Source: a phage. Taken from it: a stretch of DNA of 64,000 bases. Shown here in pieces: positions 8,415-16,001 of the stretch. Both the position numbers and the translations under genes were made by a program. The notes below the pieces were generated by a model. That model searched no databases, was not told the DNA's origin, and was given only the letters and a program-made list of their open reading frames with translations. The stretch lies in the sequence record PV467748.1. One strand, given 5' to 3'. The first letter of the stretch is position 1; every line of letters begins with the position of its first letter.

Positions 8415-9974
8415 ATGAAAAAGAATGCATTAGTTCAAAAATGGTCCGCTCTGCTGGAAAACGAAGCCCTTCCTGAAATCGTGGGTGCTTCTAAACAAGC
8501 TATCATCGCTAAAATTTTCGAAAACCAGGAACAAGACATCCTGACTGCTCCGGAATACCGTGATGAAAAAATCTCTGAAGCATTTGGTTCTTTCCTGACC
8601 GAAGCTGAAATTGGTGGTGACCACGGTTATGATGCTACCAATATCGCAGCTGGCCAGACTTCTGGTGCTGTAACTCAGATTGGGCCGGCAGTAATGGGTA
8701 TGGTTCGTCGTGCTATTCCTCATCTGATTGCTTTTGATATTTGTGGTGTTCAGCCTCTGAATAACCCTACCGGCCAGGTATTTGCCCTTCGTGCAGTTTA
8801 TGGTAAAGACCCTATCGCTGCTGGCGCTAAAGAAGCTTTCCATCCGATGTATTCTCCGGACGCTATGTTCTCTGGTCAGGGCGCTGCTCAGACTTTTGAA
8901 GCACTGGCTGCAAGCAAAGTTCTGGAAGTTGGTAAAATTTATTCTCACTTCTTCGAAGCTACCGGTGCTGCACACTTCCAGGCTGTTGAAGCTGTAACCG
9001 TTGATGCTGCTGCTACCGATGCCGCTAAACTGGATGCTGCTGTTACCGCTTTGATTGAAGCTGGTAAGTTGGCTGAATTGGCTGAAGGTATGGCTACTTC
9101 TATCGCTGAACTTCAGGAAGGCTTTAACGGTTCTACTGATAACCCGTGGAACGAAATGGGCTTCCGTATCGATAAACAAGTTATCGAAGCTAAATCTCGT
9201 CAGCTGAAAGCAAGCTACTCTATCGAACTGGCACAGGACCTTCGTGCAGTACACGGTATGGATGCAGATGCTGAACTGTCCGGTATCCTTGCTACCGAAA
9301 TTATGCTCGAAATCAACCGTGAAGTTATCGATTGGATTAACTACTCTGCACAGGTTGGTAAATCTGGTATGACCAACACCGTTGGCGCTAAAGCTGGTGT
9401 GTTTGACTTCCAGGACCCGATTGATATCCGTGGTGCTCGTTGGGCCGGTGAGAGCTTTAAAGCCCTTCTGTTCCAGATTGATAAAGAAGCAGCCGAAATC
9501 GCTCGTCAGACCGGTCGTGGTGCTGGTAACTTCATCATCGCTTCCCGTAACGTAGTTAACGTACTGGCTGCAGTTGATACTTCTGTAAGTTATGCAGCTC
9601 AAGGTCTGGGTCAGGGTTTCAACGTTGACACAACCAAAGCAGTATTTGCCGGTGTTCTTGGTGGTAAATATCGTGTTTACATCGACCAGTATGCTCGTTC
9701 CGATTACTTCACCATCGGTTATAAAGGTTCCAACGAAATGGACGCAGGTATCTACTATGCTCCGTACGTTGCACTGACTCCGCTGCGTGGTTCCGATCCG
9801 AAGAACTTCCAACCGGTAATGGGCTTCAAAACTCGTTACGGTATCGGTATTAACCCGTTCGCTGACCCAGCTGCTCAGGCGCCTACCAAACGTATTCAGA
9901 ATGGTATGCCTGACATCGTTAACAGCCTCGGTCTGAATGGTTACTTCCGTCGCGTATATGTTAAAGGTATCTAA
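8415..9974 (+). CDS. 23: major capsid protein
   Basis: 519 aa; strong similarity to T4 gp23. Confidence 0.97.
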   Translation: MKKNALVQKWSALLENEALPEIVGASKQAIIAKIFENQEQDILTAPEYRDEKISEAFGSFLTEAEIGGDHGYDATNIAAGQTSGAVTQIGPAVMGMVRRAIPHLIAFDICGVQPLNNPTGQVFALRAVYGKDPIAAGAKEAFHPMYSPDAMFSGQGAAQTFEALAASKVLEVGKIYSHFFEATGAAHFQAVEAVTVDAAATDAAKLDAAVTALIEAGKLAELAEGMATSIAELQEGFNGSTDNPWNEMGFRIDKQVIEAKSRQLKASYSIELAQDLRAVHGMDADAELSGILATEIMLEINREVIDWINYSAQVGKSGMTNTVGAKAGVFDFQDPIDIRGARWAGESFKALLFQIDKEAAEIARQTGRGAGNFIIASRNVVNVLAAVDTSVSYAAQGLGQGFNVDTTKAVFAGVLGGKYRVYIDQYARSDYFTIGYKGSNEMDAGIYYAPYVALTPLRGSDPKNFQPVMGFKTRYGIGINPFADPAAQAPTKRIQNGMPDIVNSLGLNGYFRRVYVKGI

Positions 9975-9989
9975 TATAAACCTTATTAT

Positions 9990-10007
9990 GGGAGACTTCG
10001 GTCTCCC
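9990..10007 (+). terminator. intrinsic terminator after gene 23
   Basis: GGGAGAC-TTCG-GTCTCCC hairpin followed by a T-rich tract. Confidence 0.7.
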
Positions 10008-10022
10008 ATTCTTGTTTCTATA

Positions 10023-10289
10023 CTATGCAATCTTAACACGATGGTTGATGATATCACGGAAGTCAATACGATTTTCTTGGATTTTCAGCCAGTTACCAGA
10101 TTTGTCTTTGGTATGGGTAGAGTATTCACCGTTCCACCAGAAGTCGGTAGCATAAGCCATGGCTTCGTATTTCTTAACTAGTGCATTCACTGCATTACCG
10201 TTAGGATTGGAACCATATTTTTCTACCAGGGCTTTGATGTCTTTATCAAGAGCGGAAAGAGTAGTACGAATAAAGTTTAACTTGTTCAT
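10023..10289 (-). CDS. hypothetical early protein in the 23/24 intergenic slot
   Basis: ORF with GAGGAG SD before the internal Met (MNKLNFIRTT...); own early-type promoter upstream; no recognisable domain. Confidence 0.5.
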   Translation of the reverse strand: MNKLNFIRTTLSALDKDIKALVEKYGSNPNGNAVNALVKKYEAMAYATDFWWNGEYSTHTKDKSGNWLKIQENRIDFRDIINHRVKIA

Positions 10290-10318
10290 TTTTAATCTCC
10301 TCATGTTTTGATAGGTCT

Positions 10319-10348
10319 ATAGTAACATGTGATAACCTTGCTGTAAAC
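10319..10348 (-). promoter_or_regulatory. early sigma70-type promoter (GTTTAC, spacer, TACTAT)
   Basis: Reverse complement reads GTTTAC...TACTATAGACCTATC; member of a repeated promoter/leader family. Confidence 0.5.
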
Positions 10349-10354
10349 AACTTT

Positions 10355-10362
10355 TATAAATA
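10355..10362 (+). promoter_or_regulatory. late promoter TATAAATA upstream of gene 24
   Basis: Exact TATAAATA. Confidence 0.55.
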
Positions 10363-10390
10363 AACATATACCCTCAATAAGGAAAGCGCA

Positions 10391-11674
10391 ATGGCAAAGA
10401 TTAACGAATTACTGCGCGAGTCAACAACTACTTCTAGCAACTCATTGGGTCGCCCTAATCTTGTTGCTTTGACCCGTGCTACAACCAAATTGATTTACCG
10501 TGATATTATTGCTGAACAACGTACTAGCCAGCCTATTGCTGCATTGTATGGTGTCAAATATCTTACTCCTGATAATGAATTTAGCTTCCAAACTGGTGCC
10601 GTTTATGGTGGTGAAGTTGGTTCTAAAGACCGTGAAACTATCCCGGAACTCACAGATAAGGCCCAGGCTATTGCCAAGGGTGAATATTTCAAGTATCAGA
10701 ACATAGTTTATAAGGCTCTTCAAGCAAGCCCACTCGCATCCACTAGCGCTACAGGATTGGCTGATGCTCTTCAAGAAGGTTTAGTGTCATTAACATGTCG
10801 TCTGGTTCCGGACGCTGCTCATACCACTAAATTCGAAGCGAGTGATGTAGAAATCTCTGATGCTGTATTCCAGGTAAATAAATGGAATGCTCCTGTTAAG
10901 ACTCGTAAATTGAAGACTGCTTTGACAGTAGAATTGGCACAGGATATGGAATCAAATGGATTCGACGCCCCTGCATTCTTAGAAGACCTCCTGGCTACAG
11001 TAATGGCAGATGAAATTAATAAAGACGTTCTGCAATCCTTGATTACGGTATCTAAACGTTATAAAGTTACCGGTGTATCTGATAACGGCATCATAGATTT
11101 GACTTATGATAGTGCTCCGGAATCTGCACGTAAACTTTATGAAATTGTTTGTGAGATGAATTCTGAAATCCAGAAAACTACTTCTTATTCTGGTACGTTT
11201 GTTGTGGCTTCAAGTCGTGTGGCTGCAATGCTTGCAGGTTCTGGCTGGTTAAAACATAAACCTGAAGATAATAATTGGCTCCCAGAAACCGCCTATGGGT
11301 ATTTGTTGAATGGATTACCTCTGTTCTGTGACGTTAACAGCCCGTTGGATTATGTTATCGTCGGTGTTAAAGAGAACTATGGTGGTAATGAAGTTGTCGG
11401 TTCTATTTTCTATGCCCCGTATACAGAAGGCCTGGATTTAGACGACCAAGAACACGTTGGCGCTTATAAGGTTATTGTCGACCCGGATTCATTACAGCCT
11501 TCTATTTCTCTGATGGTTCGTTATGCACTGTCCGCTAATCCATACACCGTAGCTAAAGACGATAAAGAAGCTCGTGTTATAGATGCAACTAATATGGATT
11601 TAATGGCGGGCCAGAGTAATATGTCTTATCTGCTTGGTGTTAAACTTCCAGCAATTATTTACGAGGCTGATTAA
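10391..11674 (+). CDS. 24: capsid vertex protein gp24 (ortholog copy)
   Basis: 427 aa; very close to T4 gp24. Confidence 0.95.
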   Translation: MAKINELLRESTTTSSNSLGRPNLVALTRATTKLIYRDIIAEQRTSQPIAALYGVKYLTPDNEFSFQTGAVYGGEVGSKDRETIPELTDKAQAIAKGEYFKYQNIVYKALQASPLASTSATGLADALQEGLVSLTCRLVPDAAHTTKFEASDVEISDAVFQVNKWNAPVKTRKLKTALTVELAQDMESNGFDAPAFLEDLLATVMADEINKDVLQSLITVSKRYKVTGVSDNGIIDLTYDSAPESARKLYEIVCEMNSEIQKTTSYSGTFVVASSRVAAMLAGSGWLKHKPEDNNWLPETAYGYLLNGLPLFCDVNSPLDYVIVGVKENYGGNEVVGSIFYAPYTEGLDLDDQEHVGAYKVIVDPDSLQPSISLMVRYALSANPYTVAKDDKEARVIDATNMDLMAGQSNMSYLLGVKLPAIIYEAD

Positions 11675-12954
11675 TGTCTAAGATTGTAGACCTAATTAAA
11701 GAATCCACATTGACGGCTGCCAACTCGGTTGGCCGTCCTGCTCTTCTTTCATACACCCAAGCAACTAATAAACGAATCTTTAAAGCCTTAGTTGCTGAAC
11801 AAAAAACAAGTCAACCTGTTGCCGCTCTGTACGGGGTTCGTGTACTTAATCCTGATGACAAAATGACTTATCTTGGTGGCGCTACATTTGCAGGCCAGAT
11901 TGGTATGTCGGAACGTGAAAATATTCCTGAATTTACCGATTCGTCTACAGCTTATGCAGCCGGCGATATGTTCCAGTTTGAAAGTGTAGTGTTTAAAGTT
12001 CTGGAAGCATCTCCTTTCGCCGGAACCACAGAAACTGACCTCGGTGAAGTTATTTCTGAAGCAGTGGCTGCTGGGCATATTCGTATGGTATCAGATGCGG
12101 CTATTACTTCTAAATTCGAACAGGGCCATCCTGAAATTGCTGAAGCAGGCTTCCGTATTGATAAGTGGCAGACTGAAGTTAAATCACGTAAACTGAAAAC
12201 TTCATTGACCGTCGAATTAGCCCAAGATCTAGAATCAAACGGGTTTAATGCTCCTAATTTCGTTGAAAACCTGCTAGGCATTCAAATGGCAGAAGAAATT
12301 AATAAGGACGTATTACAGTCATTAATTACGGTGAGTTCTCGTTTTAAAGTCCAGGGTGTTTCCGAAAAGGGTGTATTGGACCTTACCAACCCACGTTACG
12401 ATAATGCTCAGGACCGTGCTCGTACATTGTATTATTACATGTGTGAGATGAACTCTGCCGTACAACGCCAGACTTCTTTCGCTGGGACTTATGCAGTAGC
12501 TAGTTCTCGTTGTGCCGCTATTCTTGCCGCATCTGGTTGGGTTGAGAAAAAGGAAGACCAAGACGAACTGGCTTACGGTATATTAAAAAATGGCCTGCCT
12601 CTTTATGCCGATATGAATAGTCCGTGTGATTATGTTATTGTTGGTGTAAATGCTCAGATGGGTGAAGGACAGACGGTCGCATCTTTATATTATGCGCCTT
12701 ATACGGAAGGTTTGAATGAGGTTGATGAGGAAGGGGATACTTCAGTAGGTGAATTTAAGGTTATTGTTGACCCGGAAAGCTTACAACCTACAGTAGCATT
12801 GCTTGCTCGTTATGCATTGACTGCAAACCCTTATACCGTCGCTAAGGACGATAAAGAAGCCCGCATTATTGATGGTTCTGATATGGACAAAATGGCTAAT
12901 CAAAGTCAATTGAGTTCTTATCTCGGTGTAAAATTACCACCTTTAGAAAAATAA
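11674..12954 (+). CDS. capsid vertex protein paralog (second, divergent gp24-like copy)
   Basis: 426 aa; alignable over full length with the upstream gp24 (shared LQSLITVS, YAPYTEGL, KVIVDPxSLQP, ANPYTVAKDDKEAR blocks) at roughly half identity. Confidence 0.85.
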   Translation: MSKIVDLIKESTLTAANSVGRPALLSYTQATNKRIFKALVAEQKTSQPVAALYGVRVLNPDDKMTYLGGATFAGQIGMSERENIPEFTDSSTAYAAGDMFQFESVVFKVLEASPFAGTTETDLGEVISEAVAAGHIRMVSDAAITSKFEQGHPEIAEAGFRIDKWQTEVKSRKLKTSLTVELAQDLESNGFNAPNFVENLLGIQMAEEINKDVLQSLITVSSRFKVQGVSEKGVLDLTNPRYDNAQDRARTLYYYMCEMNSAVQRQTSFAGTYAVASSRCAAILAASGWVEKKEDQDELAYGILKNGLPLYADMNSPCDYVIVGVNAQMGEGQTVASLYYAPYTEGLNEVDEEGDTSVGEFKVIVDPESLQPTVALLARYALTANPYTVAKDDKEARIIDGSDMDKMANQSQLSSYLGVKLPPLEK

Positions 12955-12977
12955 AAGGGACCGTGAGGTCCCTTTTT
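12954..12977. terminator. bidirectional intrinsic terminator between the gp24 paralog and rnlB
   Basis: AAAAGGGACC-GTGA-GGTCCCTTTTT. Confidence 0.7.
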
Positions 12978-12980
12978 CAT

Positions 12981-13988
12981 TTATTTGGATACTAGGTCAA
13001 TCCATACTGCTCGTAGGGTATCTTTTACACACTCAACGAGCTGCTTTTTAACTTCAACAGGATTTTCAGCATCAGTTAATTCTAATTCTTCACGGGCAGC
13101 TTCTTCTAAGATATCTTGGACTGTCAAGCCCATTACCTTTCCAAAATCCTTCGGCGATACTTCACCAATCTTACTGATGACGTTGTTAATGCGGTTAACA
13201 GTCACATAATCAGTGAATTGCCACATCAAGTCCATATCGTCTTGGGATAAAACCACTGCAACTTTAATAGGCTTATCAGACTTTTTCTTCTCGCTGAATT
13301 TAGAGTTCTTACATTTAATCGCTACACGATTTCCGTTTGGAAGCCAGATAGGAACATCAGGTTTCAGTACAAAGCCTTCGGCGGTGAATACTTTACCTTC
13401 TACCTTAGGAATAAAATCTGTTGAGTTCGCAATAGTTAGGCCAGCATTATCCACTGCAAAATTATAATCAGGAACAACAGAATCAAAATCATTAGGAAGT
13501 TTAATAAGGTCTTCAAAGCTACCAGTGGCCAGACATGGCGCAACCTTAAACTTATGGATAATACAGAAGGCTTCCATCAATGTATCGGATAGAACAGATT
13601 CTGAGCCATCTTCCTTAGTAACTCGGATATCGAACACATAAAAGTCTTTATCACCGTAATCCACATTCTTCTGGATACCCGGCCCAGCGAATTCGCCGTA
13701 AATTTGATATGACTGATAATTAATCGATTCAATTAGATGTTGAACGGATTTAATAGAATCAGCATAATTCTTTAAAACAATTTCATAACCAAAGAAATCT
13801 TCAGCAGGGAGGATAGGGCCAGTGCGCTTGGCGCATGTGACTGCGTCACGTTCTATGATTAAACTAAAGTTGGTCCCATGAATCTTCTCACGTGCCACCC
13901 ATTCACCACCAGTCAAACCGTTAGTACGGAGTTTTTCGATAAACTTACTGTTGTAGTGGTTTTCGAGACTGCTATATTTCTTGAACAT
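12981..13988 (-). CDS. rnlB: RNA ligase 2
   Basis: 335 aa; near-identical N-terminus to T4 Rnl2, including the KIHG nucleotidyltransferase lysine motif. Confidence 0.95.
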
Positions 13989-14416: not shown

Positions 14417-15265
14417 TTAATAAACGTAATCGTATATAATACCAGCTTCTAAAGTGGTGCGATGAATAATTCGACCATTACGAGATTCTTGTACATCAAC
14501 CTCTGGATAGTCGGTAATCATTTTTTGAAGTGTATACCGGTGCAAATAATACGGGCTATCCGGGTCATCTGTTTTCCAGTCTTTGCCTTCAAGAGTCATT
14601 TTCTGGATTTCATCCATAACCCACCAACCGCACCAAATATAAGCTGAATTACGTACTGGCAATGGATGAACGTAAGGTAATTCGCCATCCGGAACCGGTG
14701 CGACTTTAGCCGTGACCGTTACATTACCGGTTTTTGTGACAGTCGCCTGGTTATAATCAGCCGCCGAAACCACAACAGAAACTTCAATAACCTGTGAACC
14801 TTCGGTGCTTGTGTCGATTGTTAGAGTATCCGTGGTGCCAACTACAGGAGAACCGTCTTTCTTCCAAGAATAGGCAAAAGTAGCGCCAGCAGGCGCGCCG
14901 ACTACATCCGCTTTAAAAGAAGCTGGAGTGCCTTCCGGAACATTAATTGATTCTGGGGTTAATGTCACAGAAACACCAGACATAGTTTTATTCTGGATAG
15001 TTAAAGTCGTCTCAGCTTCAGCAGTTTCCGGTTCGCCGTCCGCTGGTGTAGTTGTTGCAACAACTTTAATAGTCTTGCTGCCTGCTGGACCAACAGCAAC
15101 ATAATCCATTGCAGCAGTCACAGAAGATTGAGGAACGCCATCAACGGTCCAGACAAATGATTCAGTACCTTCAGCTGCAGCACCGGAACCGGTCGCAGTG
15201 AAATTGGTTGTTGCTCCAATAACGGCCGTAGCCGCCAAAGGAGAAATATCTACGGTATAAGCCAT
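14417..15265 (-). CDS. hoc: highly immunogenic outer capsid protein Hoc (short form)
   Basis: 282 aa; Ig-like repeats plus the conserved C-terminal capsid-binding segment (YIWCGWWVMDEIQKM...); about one Ig domain shorter than T4 Hoc. Confidence 0.9.
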   Translation of the reverse strand: MAYTVDISPLAATAVIGATTNFTATGSGAAAEGTESFVWTVDGVPQSSVTAAMDYVAVGPAGSKTIKVVATTTPADGEPETAEAETTLTIQNKTMSGVSVTLTPESINVPEGTPASFKADVVGAPAGATFAYSWKKDGSPVVGTTDTLTIDTSTEGSQVIEVSVVVSAADYNQATVTKTGNVTVTAKVAPVPDGELPYVHPLPVRNSAYIWCGWWVMDEIQKMTLEGKDWKTDDPDSPYYLHRYTLQKMITDYPEVDVQESRNGRIIHRTTLEAGIIYDYVY

Positions 15266-15987: not shown

Positions 15988-16001
15988 ACTGAGAATTACT
16001 T

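Follow-up and report, generated by a model that had tools for sequence, protein, structure and literature searches.

In the window studied here (the whole stretch of phage DNA that was analysed, 64,000 nucleotides), which is a Dhakavirus of the JS98/JS10 group, two adjoining genes encode capsid vertex proteins of the gp24 type, and they very probably constitute a functional, ancient pair of structural paralogs. The explanation preferred for them, to which we give as a whole a probability of roughly 0.45, is that this old and coupled pair would supply two vertex proteins that form separate homopentamers on different vertices of the head. The pair is not a discovery, because it is already annotated in public records, where it is known by name only: "capsid/head vertex protein I and II" in VR26, CGG4-1, S16 and F48, and 24a/24b in JS98 and JS10. 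A "gene 24 duplication in JS98" is reportedly mentioned in the abstract of Chibani-Chennoufi et al., from 2004 (J Bacteriol 186:8276).

The two genes and their surroundings are laid out as follows.
9988-10009, + strand: terminator-like hairpin after gene 23, at the upstream edge of the gene 24 unit (9-bp stem, 5 GC pairs, T-rich tail)
10355-10362, + strand: T4-type late promoter motif TATAAATA, 29 nt 5' of the c1 ATG
10379-10383, + strand: Shine-Dalgarno sequence AAGGA for c1, read off the sequence
10391-11674, + strand: copy 1 (c1), 427 aa, canonical gp24 capsid vertex protein ortholog, JS98 "24a"
11663-11666, + strand: Shine-Dalgarno sequence GAGG for c2, within the 3' end of c1, likewise from the sequence
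11674-12954, + strand: copy 2 (c2), 426 aa, divergent gp24 paralog, JS98 "24b", "capsid vertex protein II"
12953-12976, both strands: bidirectional terminator hairpin (10-bp stem), common to the c1-c2 operon and the convergent rnlB
12981-13988, minus strand: rnlB (Pfam RNA_ligase and T4_Rnl2_C)

The first-pass annotation had described two adjacent, full-length gp24-like genes, which was borne out to the exact coordinates: both ORFs give full-length matches to Pfam PF07068, the Gp23 family (covering 2/3-376 of the 376 profile positions; E = 6.5e-98 for c1 and 3.6e-97 for c2) as well as phrog_138 (E = 3e-131 and 2.5e-123, respectively), and NCBIfam had no model for either. The two proteins share about 57% amino acid identity (BLASTP: 56% over 428 columns, E = 1e-179), a sequence similarity well outside chance, and the second gene had rightly been called a divergent gp24 paralog, being 56-57% identical to c1 and 57.9% to T4 gp24. 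The first gene, however, is not "nearly identical" to T4 gp24 as was stated; the identity is 70.4%, and near-complete agreement is limited to the first ~30 residues. Identity of the two copies to gp23 (28-32%) is far lower than to gp24, their 427 and 426 aa compare with 519 aa for the gp23 of the window, and both are without the ~65-residue N-terminal delta-piece of gp23. The fold of c1 is beyond doubt because of its 70% identity to PDB 1YUE. The c2 sequence also matched 1YUE over its full length (E = 1.4e-151, against only ~1e-11 for gp23 chains), and its AlphaFold model (mean pLDDT 73.6, pTM 0.68, with pLDDT < 50 in the N-terminal 32 residues) found its best structural match in mature T4 gp24* (5VF3_a, TM 0.81), followed by 7VRT gp24* and 1YUE, with gp23 chains at a TM of about 0.57. 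As in solved gp24, the structure predicted for c2 combines an HK97-like fold of A and P domains with an I domain.

The gene order 21-22-23-(orf93)-c1-c2-rnlB-hoc-inh places both copies in the head-morphogenesis cluster, 3' of gene 23, whose ORF ends at 9974. Motifs of the TATAAATA type were found 16 times in the window against 6.5 expected, and 9 of the 10 late promoter motifs before position 16000 are on the + strand, within the block of late head and tail genes. A sequence scan from the motif at 10355-10362 to c2 revealed no second late promoter motif. The stop codon of c1 (TAA, 11672-11674) shares one base with the ATG of c2 (11674-11676) in a TAATG overlap, which together with the Shine-Dalgarno sequence inside c1 suggests translational coupling; the junction was abutting or overlapping in all seven lineages checked. 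With a promoter and a terminator on the flanks and no signal between, the arrangement is consistent with one bicistronic late operon. Composition and codon use of c2 resemble those of the neighbouring late genes (CAI 0.43 vs 0.48 in c1). T4 gp24 (PDB 1YUE, 5VF3, 7VRT/7VS5) is like the two copies in length (427 aa) and Pfam family, is encoded 3' of gene 23 with a late promoter in front, and carries a 10-residue propeptide motif ending in Glu. The window has in the same operon a further paralog (57% identity) that bears a signature of its own in the N-terminal arm and I-domain linker, whereas T4 has one gene 24; it is followed, as had been noted, by rnlB, which is convergent and lies 29 bp beyond it. 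The direct orthologs of the pair are 24a and 24b of JS98 and JS10 (c1 96% identical to JS98 24a, c2 91% to JS98 24b), with the same order and the same junction, and nothing essential differs.

Judged by divergence, distribution and tree topology, c1 and c2 are an old, stable and co-inherited gene pair. Nucleotide identity between them is 61%, dS is saturated at 2.46, the longest identical run is 14 nt and no gene conversion tracts between the two were found; amino acid identity within a genome was 52-57% in 13 of 13 pairs. A survey of related T4-like genomes, proposed in the first-pass annotation, showed the pair in about 117 phage records. Roughly 8% of T4-like genomes in the phage collection carry it, among them therapeutic coliphages and Salmonella phage S16. 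The tandem arrangement is shared by Dhaka-, Gapriver-, Gelderland- and Marfavirus, by contigs like Erwinia phage FBB1 and by metagenomic lineages, and every c2 ortholog examined (12 GenBank and Logan loci; 16 of 16 IMG/VR loci) had c1 directly upstream. A recent, lineage-specific tandem duplication is ruled out by the nucleotide identity, the saturated dS, the spread over several genera and the tree topology, and recent gene conversion by the same identity and the short longest run. The earlier suggestion of a duplicate still heading for a new function misreads this history: the pair is old, occurs in at least four genera and has a second member that evolves more slowly than the first.

In the NJ analyses with Kimura distances, c2 formed its own clade (98-99% bootstrap), and c1 grouped with the gp24 of T4 and other single-copy gp24s in a clade with 98% bootstrap support. 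The c1 and c2 trees largely mirror one another, with the FBB1-like group basal in both subtrees, and a sister relation between c2 and the c1 of the same genomes appeared in none of the bootstraps (100 or 200). Because the two trees mirror each other and the single-copy gp24s, that of T4 included, nest in the c1 clade, T4 probably lost c2, and its single-gene state is probably derived. The same nesting of single-copy lineages makes it seem that c2 was lost repeatedly and is dispensable in some backgrounds. The c2 stem branch is long (0.177 vs 0.050 substitutions per site), and its attachment point had supports of only 26-54%. The c2 clade is about equidistant (54-59% identity) from most sampled core gp24s, the nearest being the Jiaodavirus-type gp24 (63-64%). 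That c2 was lately acquired by horizontal transfer from one of the sampled single-copy lineages was rejected, no donor being evident and c2 being monophyletic; an old capture from an unsampled lineage is indistinguishable from an ancient duplication.

The substitution pattern indicates strong purifying selection on both copies, with median pairwise dN/dS values of 0.057 (c1) and 0.055 (c2) among seven Dhakavirus genomes. Across 15 genomes, mean pairwise identity was 71.5% for c1 and 76.2% for c2, the latter being the more conserved and slower evolving, and the divergences of the two were correlated (r = 0.79). The frameshift or premature stop that would have spoken against a second gene was not seen, as the c2 ORF was intact in all loci examined. 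A pseudogene or relaxed duplicate is ruled out for c2 by its intactness, its dN/dS and its conservation above that of c1. With tandem gp24 paralogs that are both intact, the earlier proposal of a second vertex-type protein is reasonable.

Both copies carry the sequence motif predicted for cleavage by gp21 (after Glu in L/I-x-E) and a putative 10-residue propeptide, MAKINELLRE/ST in c1 and MSKIVDLIKE/ST in c2, and [LI]-x-E-S at residues 8-11 was kept in 16 of 16 c2 sequences inspected. In T4, the prohead protease removes 10 N-terminal residues of gp24 (PMC9546572). The c2 clade is marked by 12-13 specific fixed substitutions, of which seven fall within residues 26-68 (A26S, T32N, L34R, Y36F, K56R, Y57V and T68G) and cluster, in a pattern spotted post hoc, in two elements, the N-terminal arm (26-36 in T4 numbering) and the first part of I-domain linker 1 (56-68). 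Differences that tell the two copies apart include, again in T4 numbering, 34 (Leu/Arg), 57 (Tyr/Val), 415 (Leu/Tyr) and insertions of 2-3 residues after 239 and 350. The ancestral residues are retained by c1 at these signature positions, and c1 differs from the nested single-copy gp24s at only three near-fixed positions, all conservative. Within a T4 pentamer, residues 26-29 of one gp24* are paired with one of the I-domain linkers (which one is unstated) of its neighbour; residues 11-20 extend to a neighbouring hexamer (PMC9546572). A shortened AP-loop was also considered as a hallmark of c2 and discarded; it is no clade signature, because c2 of the FBB1 group lacks the 4-residue deletion (around T4 residues 293-297) and loop length varies in c1 too.

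From the conservation, the cleavage motif and the position of these substitutions, we infer that c2 is a specialised second vertex protein. Both proteins would enter the prohead and be cleaved by gp21. The changes in c2 would sit in the elements which in T4 contact neighbouring gp24* subunits of one pentamer and the adjacent hexamers. The 11 non-portal vertices of the prolate head are non-equivalent, comprising an apical one and two rings of five, distal and portal-proximal. On a subset of these vertices c2 could form homopentamers of its own, with c1 pentamers filling the remaining ones, and in lineages such as T4, where c2 was apparently lost, one protein would occupy every vertex. Homopentamers of c2 appear the most likely form because the contact-region changes are on c2 and the ancestral residues in c1; this division of vertices is nevertheless offered tentatively, at somewhat less than even odds. 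That the homopentamers belong to different geometric classes of vertices, e.g., the apical one vs the two rings of five, is unlikely on what is at hand. The need for such a specialisation is not obvious, because all 55 gp24* subunits of T4 were reported to be conformationally alike (PMC9546572). In the searchable literature we found neither a proteomic, structural or genetic report on c2 in the virion nor a functional study of a second gp24 copy; the virion proteomes found were from single-copy phages (Jiaodavirus and Morganella MP1), a transposon-mutagenesis preprint dealt with PhiKZ, and no solved capsid from a two-copy phage was found.

The tight translational coupling in all lineages and the lack of any c2 without c1 are what would be expected of subunits of one complex, and could thus point to heteropentamers, in which c1 and c2 co-assemble in the same vertex pentamer at a fixed or variable ratio and each vertex is mixed. 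The correlated divergence of c1 and c2 agrees with this as well, but is equally explained by plain co-inheritance. Moreover, two types of subunit cannot alternate around a ring of five, which means that at least three types of interface would be needed, and the concerted changes in the interface region are confined to c2, with no compensatory signature in c1 relative to single-copy gp24 beyond the three conservative differences. Mixed pentamers are for these reasons considered unlikely.

Apparent repeated loss of c2 would fit an accessory role, in which either paralog builds all vertices and two are kept for robustness. The benefit could lie in capsid stability across temperature, osmolarity or gut conditions, or in tolerance of host factors or defences acting on the vertex protein. 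The requirement for gp24 in T4 is plastic, being bypassed by single mutations in gp23, and the presence of gp24 alters the resistance of the capsid to environmental stress (PMC10580926; PMC3012670). In addition, T6 gp24 is required to trigger type IV Thoeris, from which A380V escapes (PMC13243611). However, the Thoeris trigger would still be exposed as long as c1 is kept, and c2 is no obvious escape variant, because position A380 is Ala in both copies. Separate regulation was not seen in the sequence, where the two genes appear to be co-transcribed and translationally coupled, and redundant genes rarely both keep a dN/dS near 0.06 at such depth. An alternative or conditional vertex protein is accordingly regarded as doubtful.

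Since c2 is a putative virion protein, and its long stem branch leaves room for a change of function, c2 might instead be expressed without being a stable shell subunit, acting as a transient assembly factor or lying near the portal or inside the prohead core. Against this, c2 has the full length of gp24 and is collinear with it, both clades share 144 identical positions, the model matches mature gp24* at TM 0.81, the cleavage motif is kept and there is no gp23 delta-piece, so that a non-shell role is quite improbable. A decaying or silent duplicate, or an artefact of sequencing or assembly, has nothing in its favour beyond the duplication itself and is hardly credible given the intact ORF in about 117 independent phage records and many metagenome contigs, the low dN/dS, and a CAI and composition like those of neighbouring late genes.

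The preferred reading, separate pentamers of c1 and c2, has a parallel in gp23 and gp24 of T4, which go back to a single HK97-fold ancestor and have specialised in hexamers and pentamers, respectively; the likeness lies in the duplication of a shell gene with subsequent positional specialisation, and the pair may represent a second round of it. The two cases differ in that gp23 and gp24 share about 25-30% identity and are unlike in the N-terminal delta-piece and in chaperone dependence, whereas c1 and c2 share 57% and one architecture, and a positional split between the latter two is what we infer from their sequences. Two-component HK97-fold shells, for example those of Family 2B two-component encapsulins, reportedly likewise consist of two paralogous shell proteins that are encoded together and may co-assemble into one shell (PMC11071501). 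They belong to another lineage with another function and variable tiling, and serve as an analogy for shells of mixed composition only.

T4 is the reference for how prolate capsids assemble, and a single protein, gp24, is described as the building block of its vertices; a sizeable group of close relatives has long kept two distinct vertex proteins, both under strong selection. Should c1 and c2 mark different vertices, there would be implications for the way prolate heads tell cap from midsection and for the stability of the capsid. As alternatives, they would be informative on how a phage deals with a host able to sense its vertex protein. The role of c2 is a fairly well-posed experimental question and cheap to address. 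Should the assignment to geometric classes be true, vertex identity would have been genetically encoded in the ancestral T-even-type capsid, the one-protein state of T4 would be a secondary simplification, and the pair would offer a handle on how cap and midsection geometry is specified.

The region between gene 23 and rnlB of the window contains two adjacent gp24-like genes, copy 1 and copy 2, with the following features:

9988-10009, terminator-like hairpin after gene 23
10355-10362, T4 late-promoter motif TATAAATA, 29 nt ahead of the copy 1 ATG
10391-11674, plus strand, copy 1, ORF of 427 aa, full-profile match to Pfam PF07068 (Gp23/Gp24 family), E 6.5e-98
11674-12954, plus strand, copy 2, ORF of 426 aa, full-profile match to Pfam PF07068 (Gp23/Gp24 family), E 3.6e-97
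GAGG, 7 nt ahead of the copy 2 ATG, which overlaps the copy 1 stop
12953-12976, bidirectional hairpin closing the copy 1-copy 2 unit against the convergent rnlB

The first-pass annotation had recognized a full-length pair at exactly these coordinates, which the ORFs and whole-profile matches confirmed. The gene order follows the head cluster of T4 (genes 21, 22 and 23, then a small ORF on the reverse strand, copy 1, copy 2, and the convergent rnlB, hoc and inh), except that T4, as had been noted, has a single gene 24 directly before rnlB (gap of 29 bp), whereas two gp24-like genes precede rnlB here. The two proteins align end to end (56-57% identity, E 1e-179). Copy 1 had been described as nearly identical to T4 gp24; however, the identity is 70.4%, with near-sameness confined to the N-terminal ~30 residues. 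The second gene, described as a divergent paralog, has 57.9% identity to T4 gp24 and falls in its own clade (98-99% bootstrap) in a family tree rooted on gp23. No second late-promoter motif was found between 10355-10362 and copy 2, and the pair reads as a single, putatively bicistronic late operon with translational coupling.

Between genes 23 and 24, T4 carries the homing endonuclease segD, whereas the window has a 93-aa ORF (10023-10304, minus strand), which matched phrog_6003 (unknown function, E 1.9e-49), gave no match in a Pfam search and is "hypothetical" in every Dhakavirus record seen. The hoc homolog (14417-15265, minus strand) encodes 282 aa in the window and in JS98 (849 nt), whereas T4 hoc (1131 nt) encodes 376 aa; this gives a shorter outer capsid fibre, presumably with fewer Ig-like domains.

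The 3.1-kb region aligned along its entire length with Dhakavirus genomes (NC-G, 95.6%; JS10, 94.8%; JS98, 87.4%). The pair is named 24a and 24b ("gp24 head vertex protein") in the JS98 GenBank record, "capsid vertex protein I/II" in dhaeg and VR26 and "head vertex protein I/II" in CGG4-1, so it is already annotated in many relatives, as a member of a well-known family. A gene 24 duplication is reportedly mentioned in the abstract of a 2004 JS98 paper. Full-text searches of the accessible literature found no study on the function of the second copy, and what this second vertex protein does appears to be unstudied.

The proposed survey of related T4-like genomes found the paralog in at least four genera. 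Searches with copy 2 (tblastn) located gp24-like genes at 1580 places in 1453 phage records, which implies roughly 127 records with two. A full-length copy 2 ortholog was present in 117 records (blastn) from Dhakavirus, Gaprivervirus (VR26, Yersinia P8), Gelderlandvirus (S16, STML-198, CGG4-1) and Marfavirus (F48, PWKp16/18), and protein searches also brought in Erwinia phage FBB1, along with numerous metagenomic contigs. At every locus opened (JS98, five further Dhakavirus genomes, S16, PWKp16, five Logan contigs and 16/16 copy 2-bearing IMG/VR loci) a copy 1-type gene lay directly upstream, and no genome with copy 2 but without copy 1 was seen among them. The stop of copy 1 overlapped or abutted the start of copy 2 in each of the seven lineages compared (TAATG, TAAATG, ATGA-type overlaps and TAATATG). 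Somewhere from the gene 24 pair to rnlB, IME08 (HM071924/NC_014260, about 105271-109751) has a ~1.4 kb insertion annotated "tail fiber-like protein". S16 has a DprA-like gene between copy 2 and rnlB, and in Marfavirus and several of the metagenomic contigs copy 2 is followed by one or two additional plus-strand ORFs of 165-352 aa without Pfam match; the copy 2-rnlB junction looks like a hotspot for insertions.

Seven Dhakavirus genomes compared in pairs gave a median NG86 dN/dS of 0.057 for copy 1 and 0.055 for copy 2, and among 15 genomes with both genes copy 2 was the more conserved (mean pairwise identity of 76.2% versus 71.5%). Twenty-two alignment columns were conserved in copy 2 yet variable in other gp24s, and none showed the reverse. 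By these sequence measures copy 2 is a constrained functional gene, and a decaying copy is ruled out by the low dN/dS and the higher conservation. Both genes are alike in base composition and codon adaptation, and typical of nearby late genes.

A recent duplication or gene conversion is likewise ruled out, since the two genes of the window share 61% nucleotide identity with saturated dS (dN 0.37, dS 2.46) and a longest in-register identical run of 14 nt. Identity within one genome was 52-57% in 13/13 pairs. In NJ trees computed from Kimura-corrected distances, with the root on gp23 and distant gp24s from Krisch-, Slopek-, Biquarta- and Ceceduovirus added, all copy 2 sequences formed one clade (bootstrap 99/100 and 98% in two trees). 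Copy 1 fell in a separate clade (98%), which also takes in the single-copy gp24s of T4, AV111, CC31, Merlin, PEi20, PM2, Serratia 4S and EcS1. Both subtrees had the FBB1-like group at their base and recovered the Dhaka/Gapriver/Gelderland group, and copy 1 and copy 2 divergences were correlated (r=0.73-0.79). The best account of this mirrored pattern is a single old duplication, or an old capture, predating the radiation that includes T4's gp24. Copy 2 would afterwards have been co-inherited with copy 1 and repeatedly lost, the T4 lineage being among the losers. PWKp16, ctg80268 and ctg20182 were placed differently in the two subtrees, which indicates recombination in the head module and makes the number of losses uncertain. 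The attachment point of the copy 2 stem had 26-54% support only. The long stem and shallow crown of copy 2 (0.177 and 0.175 substitutions per site; copy 1 clade, 0.050 and 0.256) could reflect a rapid early change in copy 2 or an older origin.

Between the window (8415-12954) and JS98 (locus L001), dS was 0.08 for gp23, 0.53 for copy 1 and 1.14 for copy 2, which suggests recombination breakpoints close to where copy 1 meets copy 2, a strong constraint on codon usage in gene 23, or a combination of the two; against NC-G and Bp7 the two copies had similar dS (0.2-0.45). The single gp24 of Jiaodavirus-type phages was mosaic in its similarity: in the Klebsiella phage RCIP0032 (locus L009, 301-1581) it was copy 1-like at residues 1-60 (83% versus 57%) and 301-390, and nearer copy 2 (58-68%) than copy 1 (37-43%) over the I-domain stretch 91-180. 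The same trend held for gp24s of Tegunavirus and of some Acinetobacter phages, and the I domain seems to be the fast-evolving part of Dhakavirus copy 1.

Copy 2 matched T4 gp24 (PDB 1YUE) over its full length (E 1.4e-151; gp23 chains, ~1e-11), and its AlphaFold model (mean pLDDT 73.6) was closest to 5VF3_a, the mature gp24* of the T4 capsid (TM 0.81; gp23, ~0.57). All copy 2 sequences keep [L/I]-x-E|S at residues 8-11, the site at which the T4 prohead protease removes 10 N-terminal residues from gp24 (PMC9546572). Twelve to 13 fixed positions set copy 2 apart from every other gp24 group; seven fall within T4 residues 26-68 (A26S, T32N, L34R, Y36F, K56R, Y57V and T68G), and the canonical motif LVALTRATTKLIY becomes LLS[YF]T[QK]ATNKRIF. 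Residues 11-59 hold six such sites versus ~1.5 of 13 expected by length, a clustering that is only suggestive because the region was chosen post hoc. In gp24* of the expanded T4 head, residues 11-20 reach onto the neighbouring hexamer, residues 26-29 make a parallel beta interaction with an I-domain linker belonging to the next subunit of their own pentamer, and residues 60-81 form I-domain linker 1 (PMC9546572). Copy 2 also tends to have insertions of 2-3 residues after T4 positions 239 and 350. Copy 1 of two-copy genomes retains the canonical residues at the copy 2-specific sites and has just three differences, conservative and near-fixed, from the nested single-copy gp24s.

Copy 1 is well supported as the canonical ortholog and copy 2 as a distinct, derived paralog. 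We favour an arrangement in which copy 2 would form homopentamers, separate from copy 1, that occupy some of the vertices of the prolate head, which are not all equivalent, since the concerted changes are on copy 2 alone, in elements contacting neighbouring subunits, and since a five-membered ring cannot alternate two subunit types. Mixed pentamers would be less probable, as would a conditional or alternative role, which could lie in capsid robustness or in coping with host systems sensing gp24. T6 gp24 is required for triggering type IV Thoeris, with escape position A380 (PMC13243611); however, this residue is Ala in both copies and ~95% conserved (T4 numbering) in the copy 1/single-copy and copy 2 sets. 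Two facts argue that vertex specialisation is no geometric necessity: the 55 gp24* subunits of T4 are reported to be conformationally alike (PMC9546572), and copy 2 was seemingly lost repeatedly.

It is well supported that the window encodes two gp24-type vertex proteins as an ancient pair, inherited together and presumably expressed together, each under strong purifying selection. The earlier suggestion of a duplicate still acquiring a new function does not fit; the pair is better described as long-standing and stable, with T4 as a lineage in which it was probably lost.
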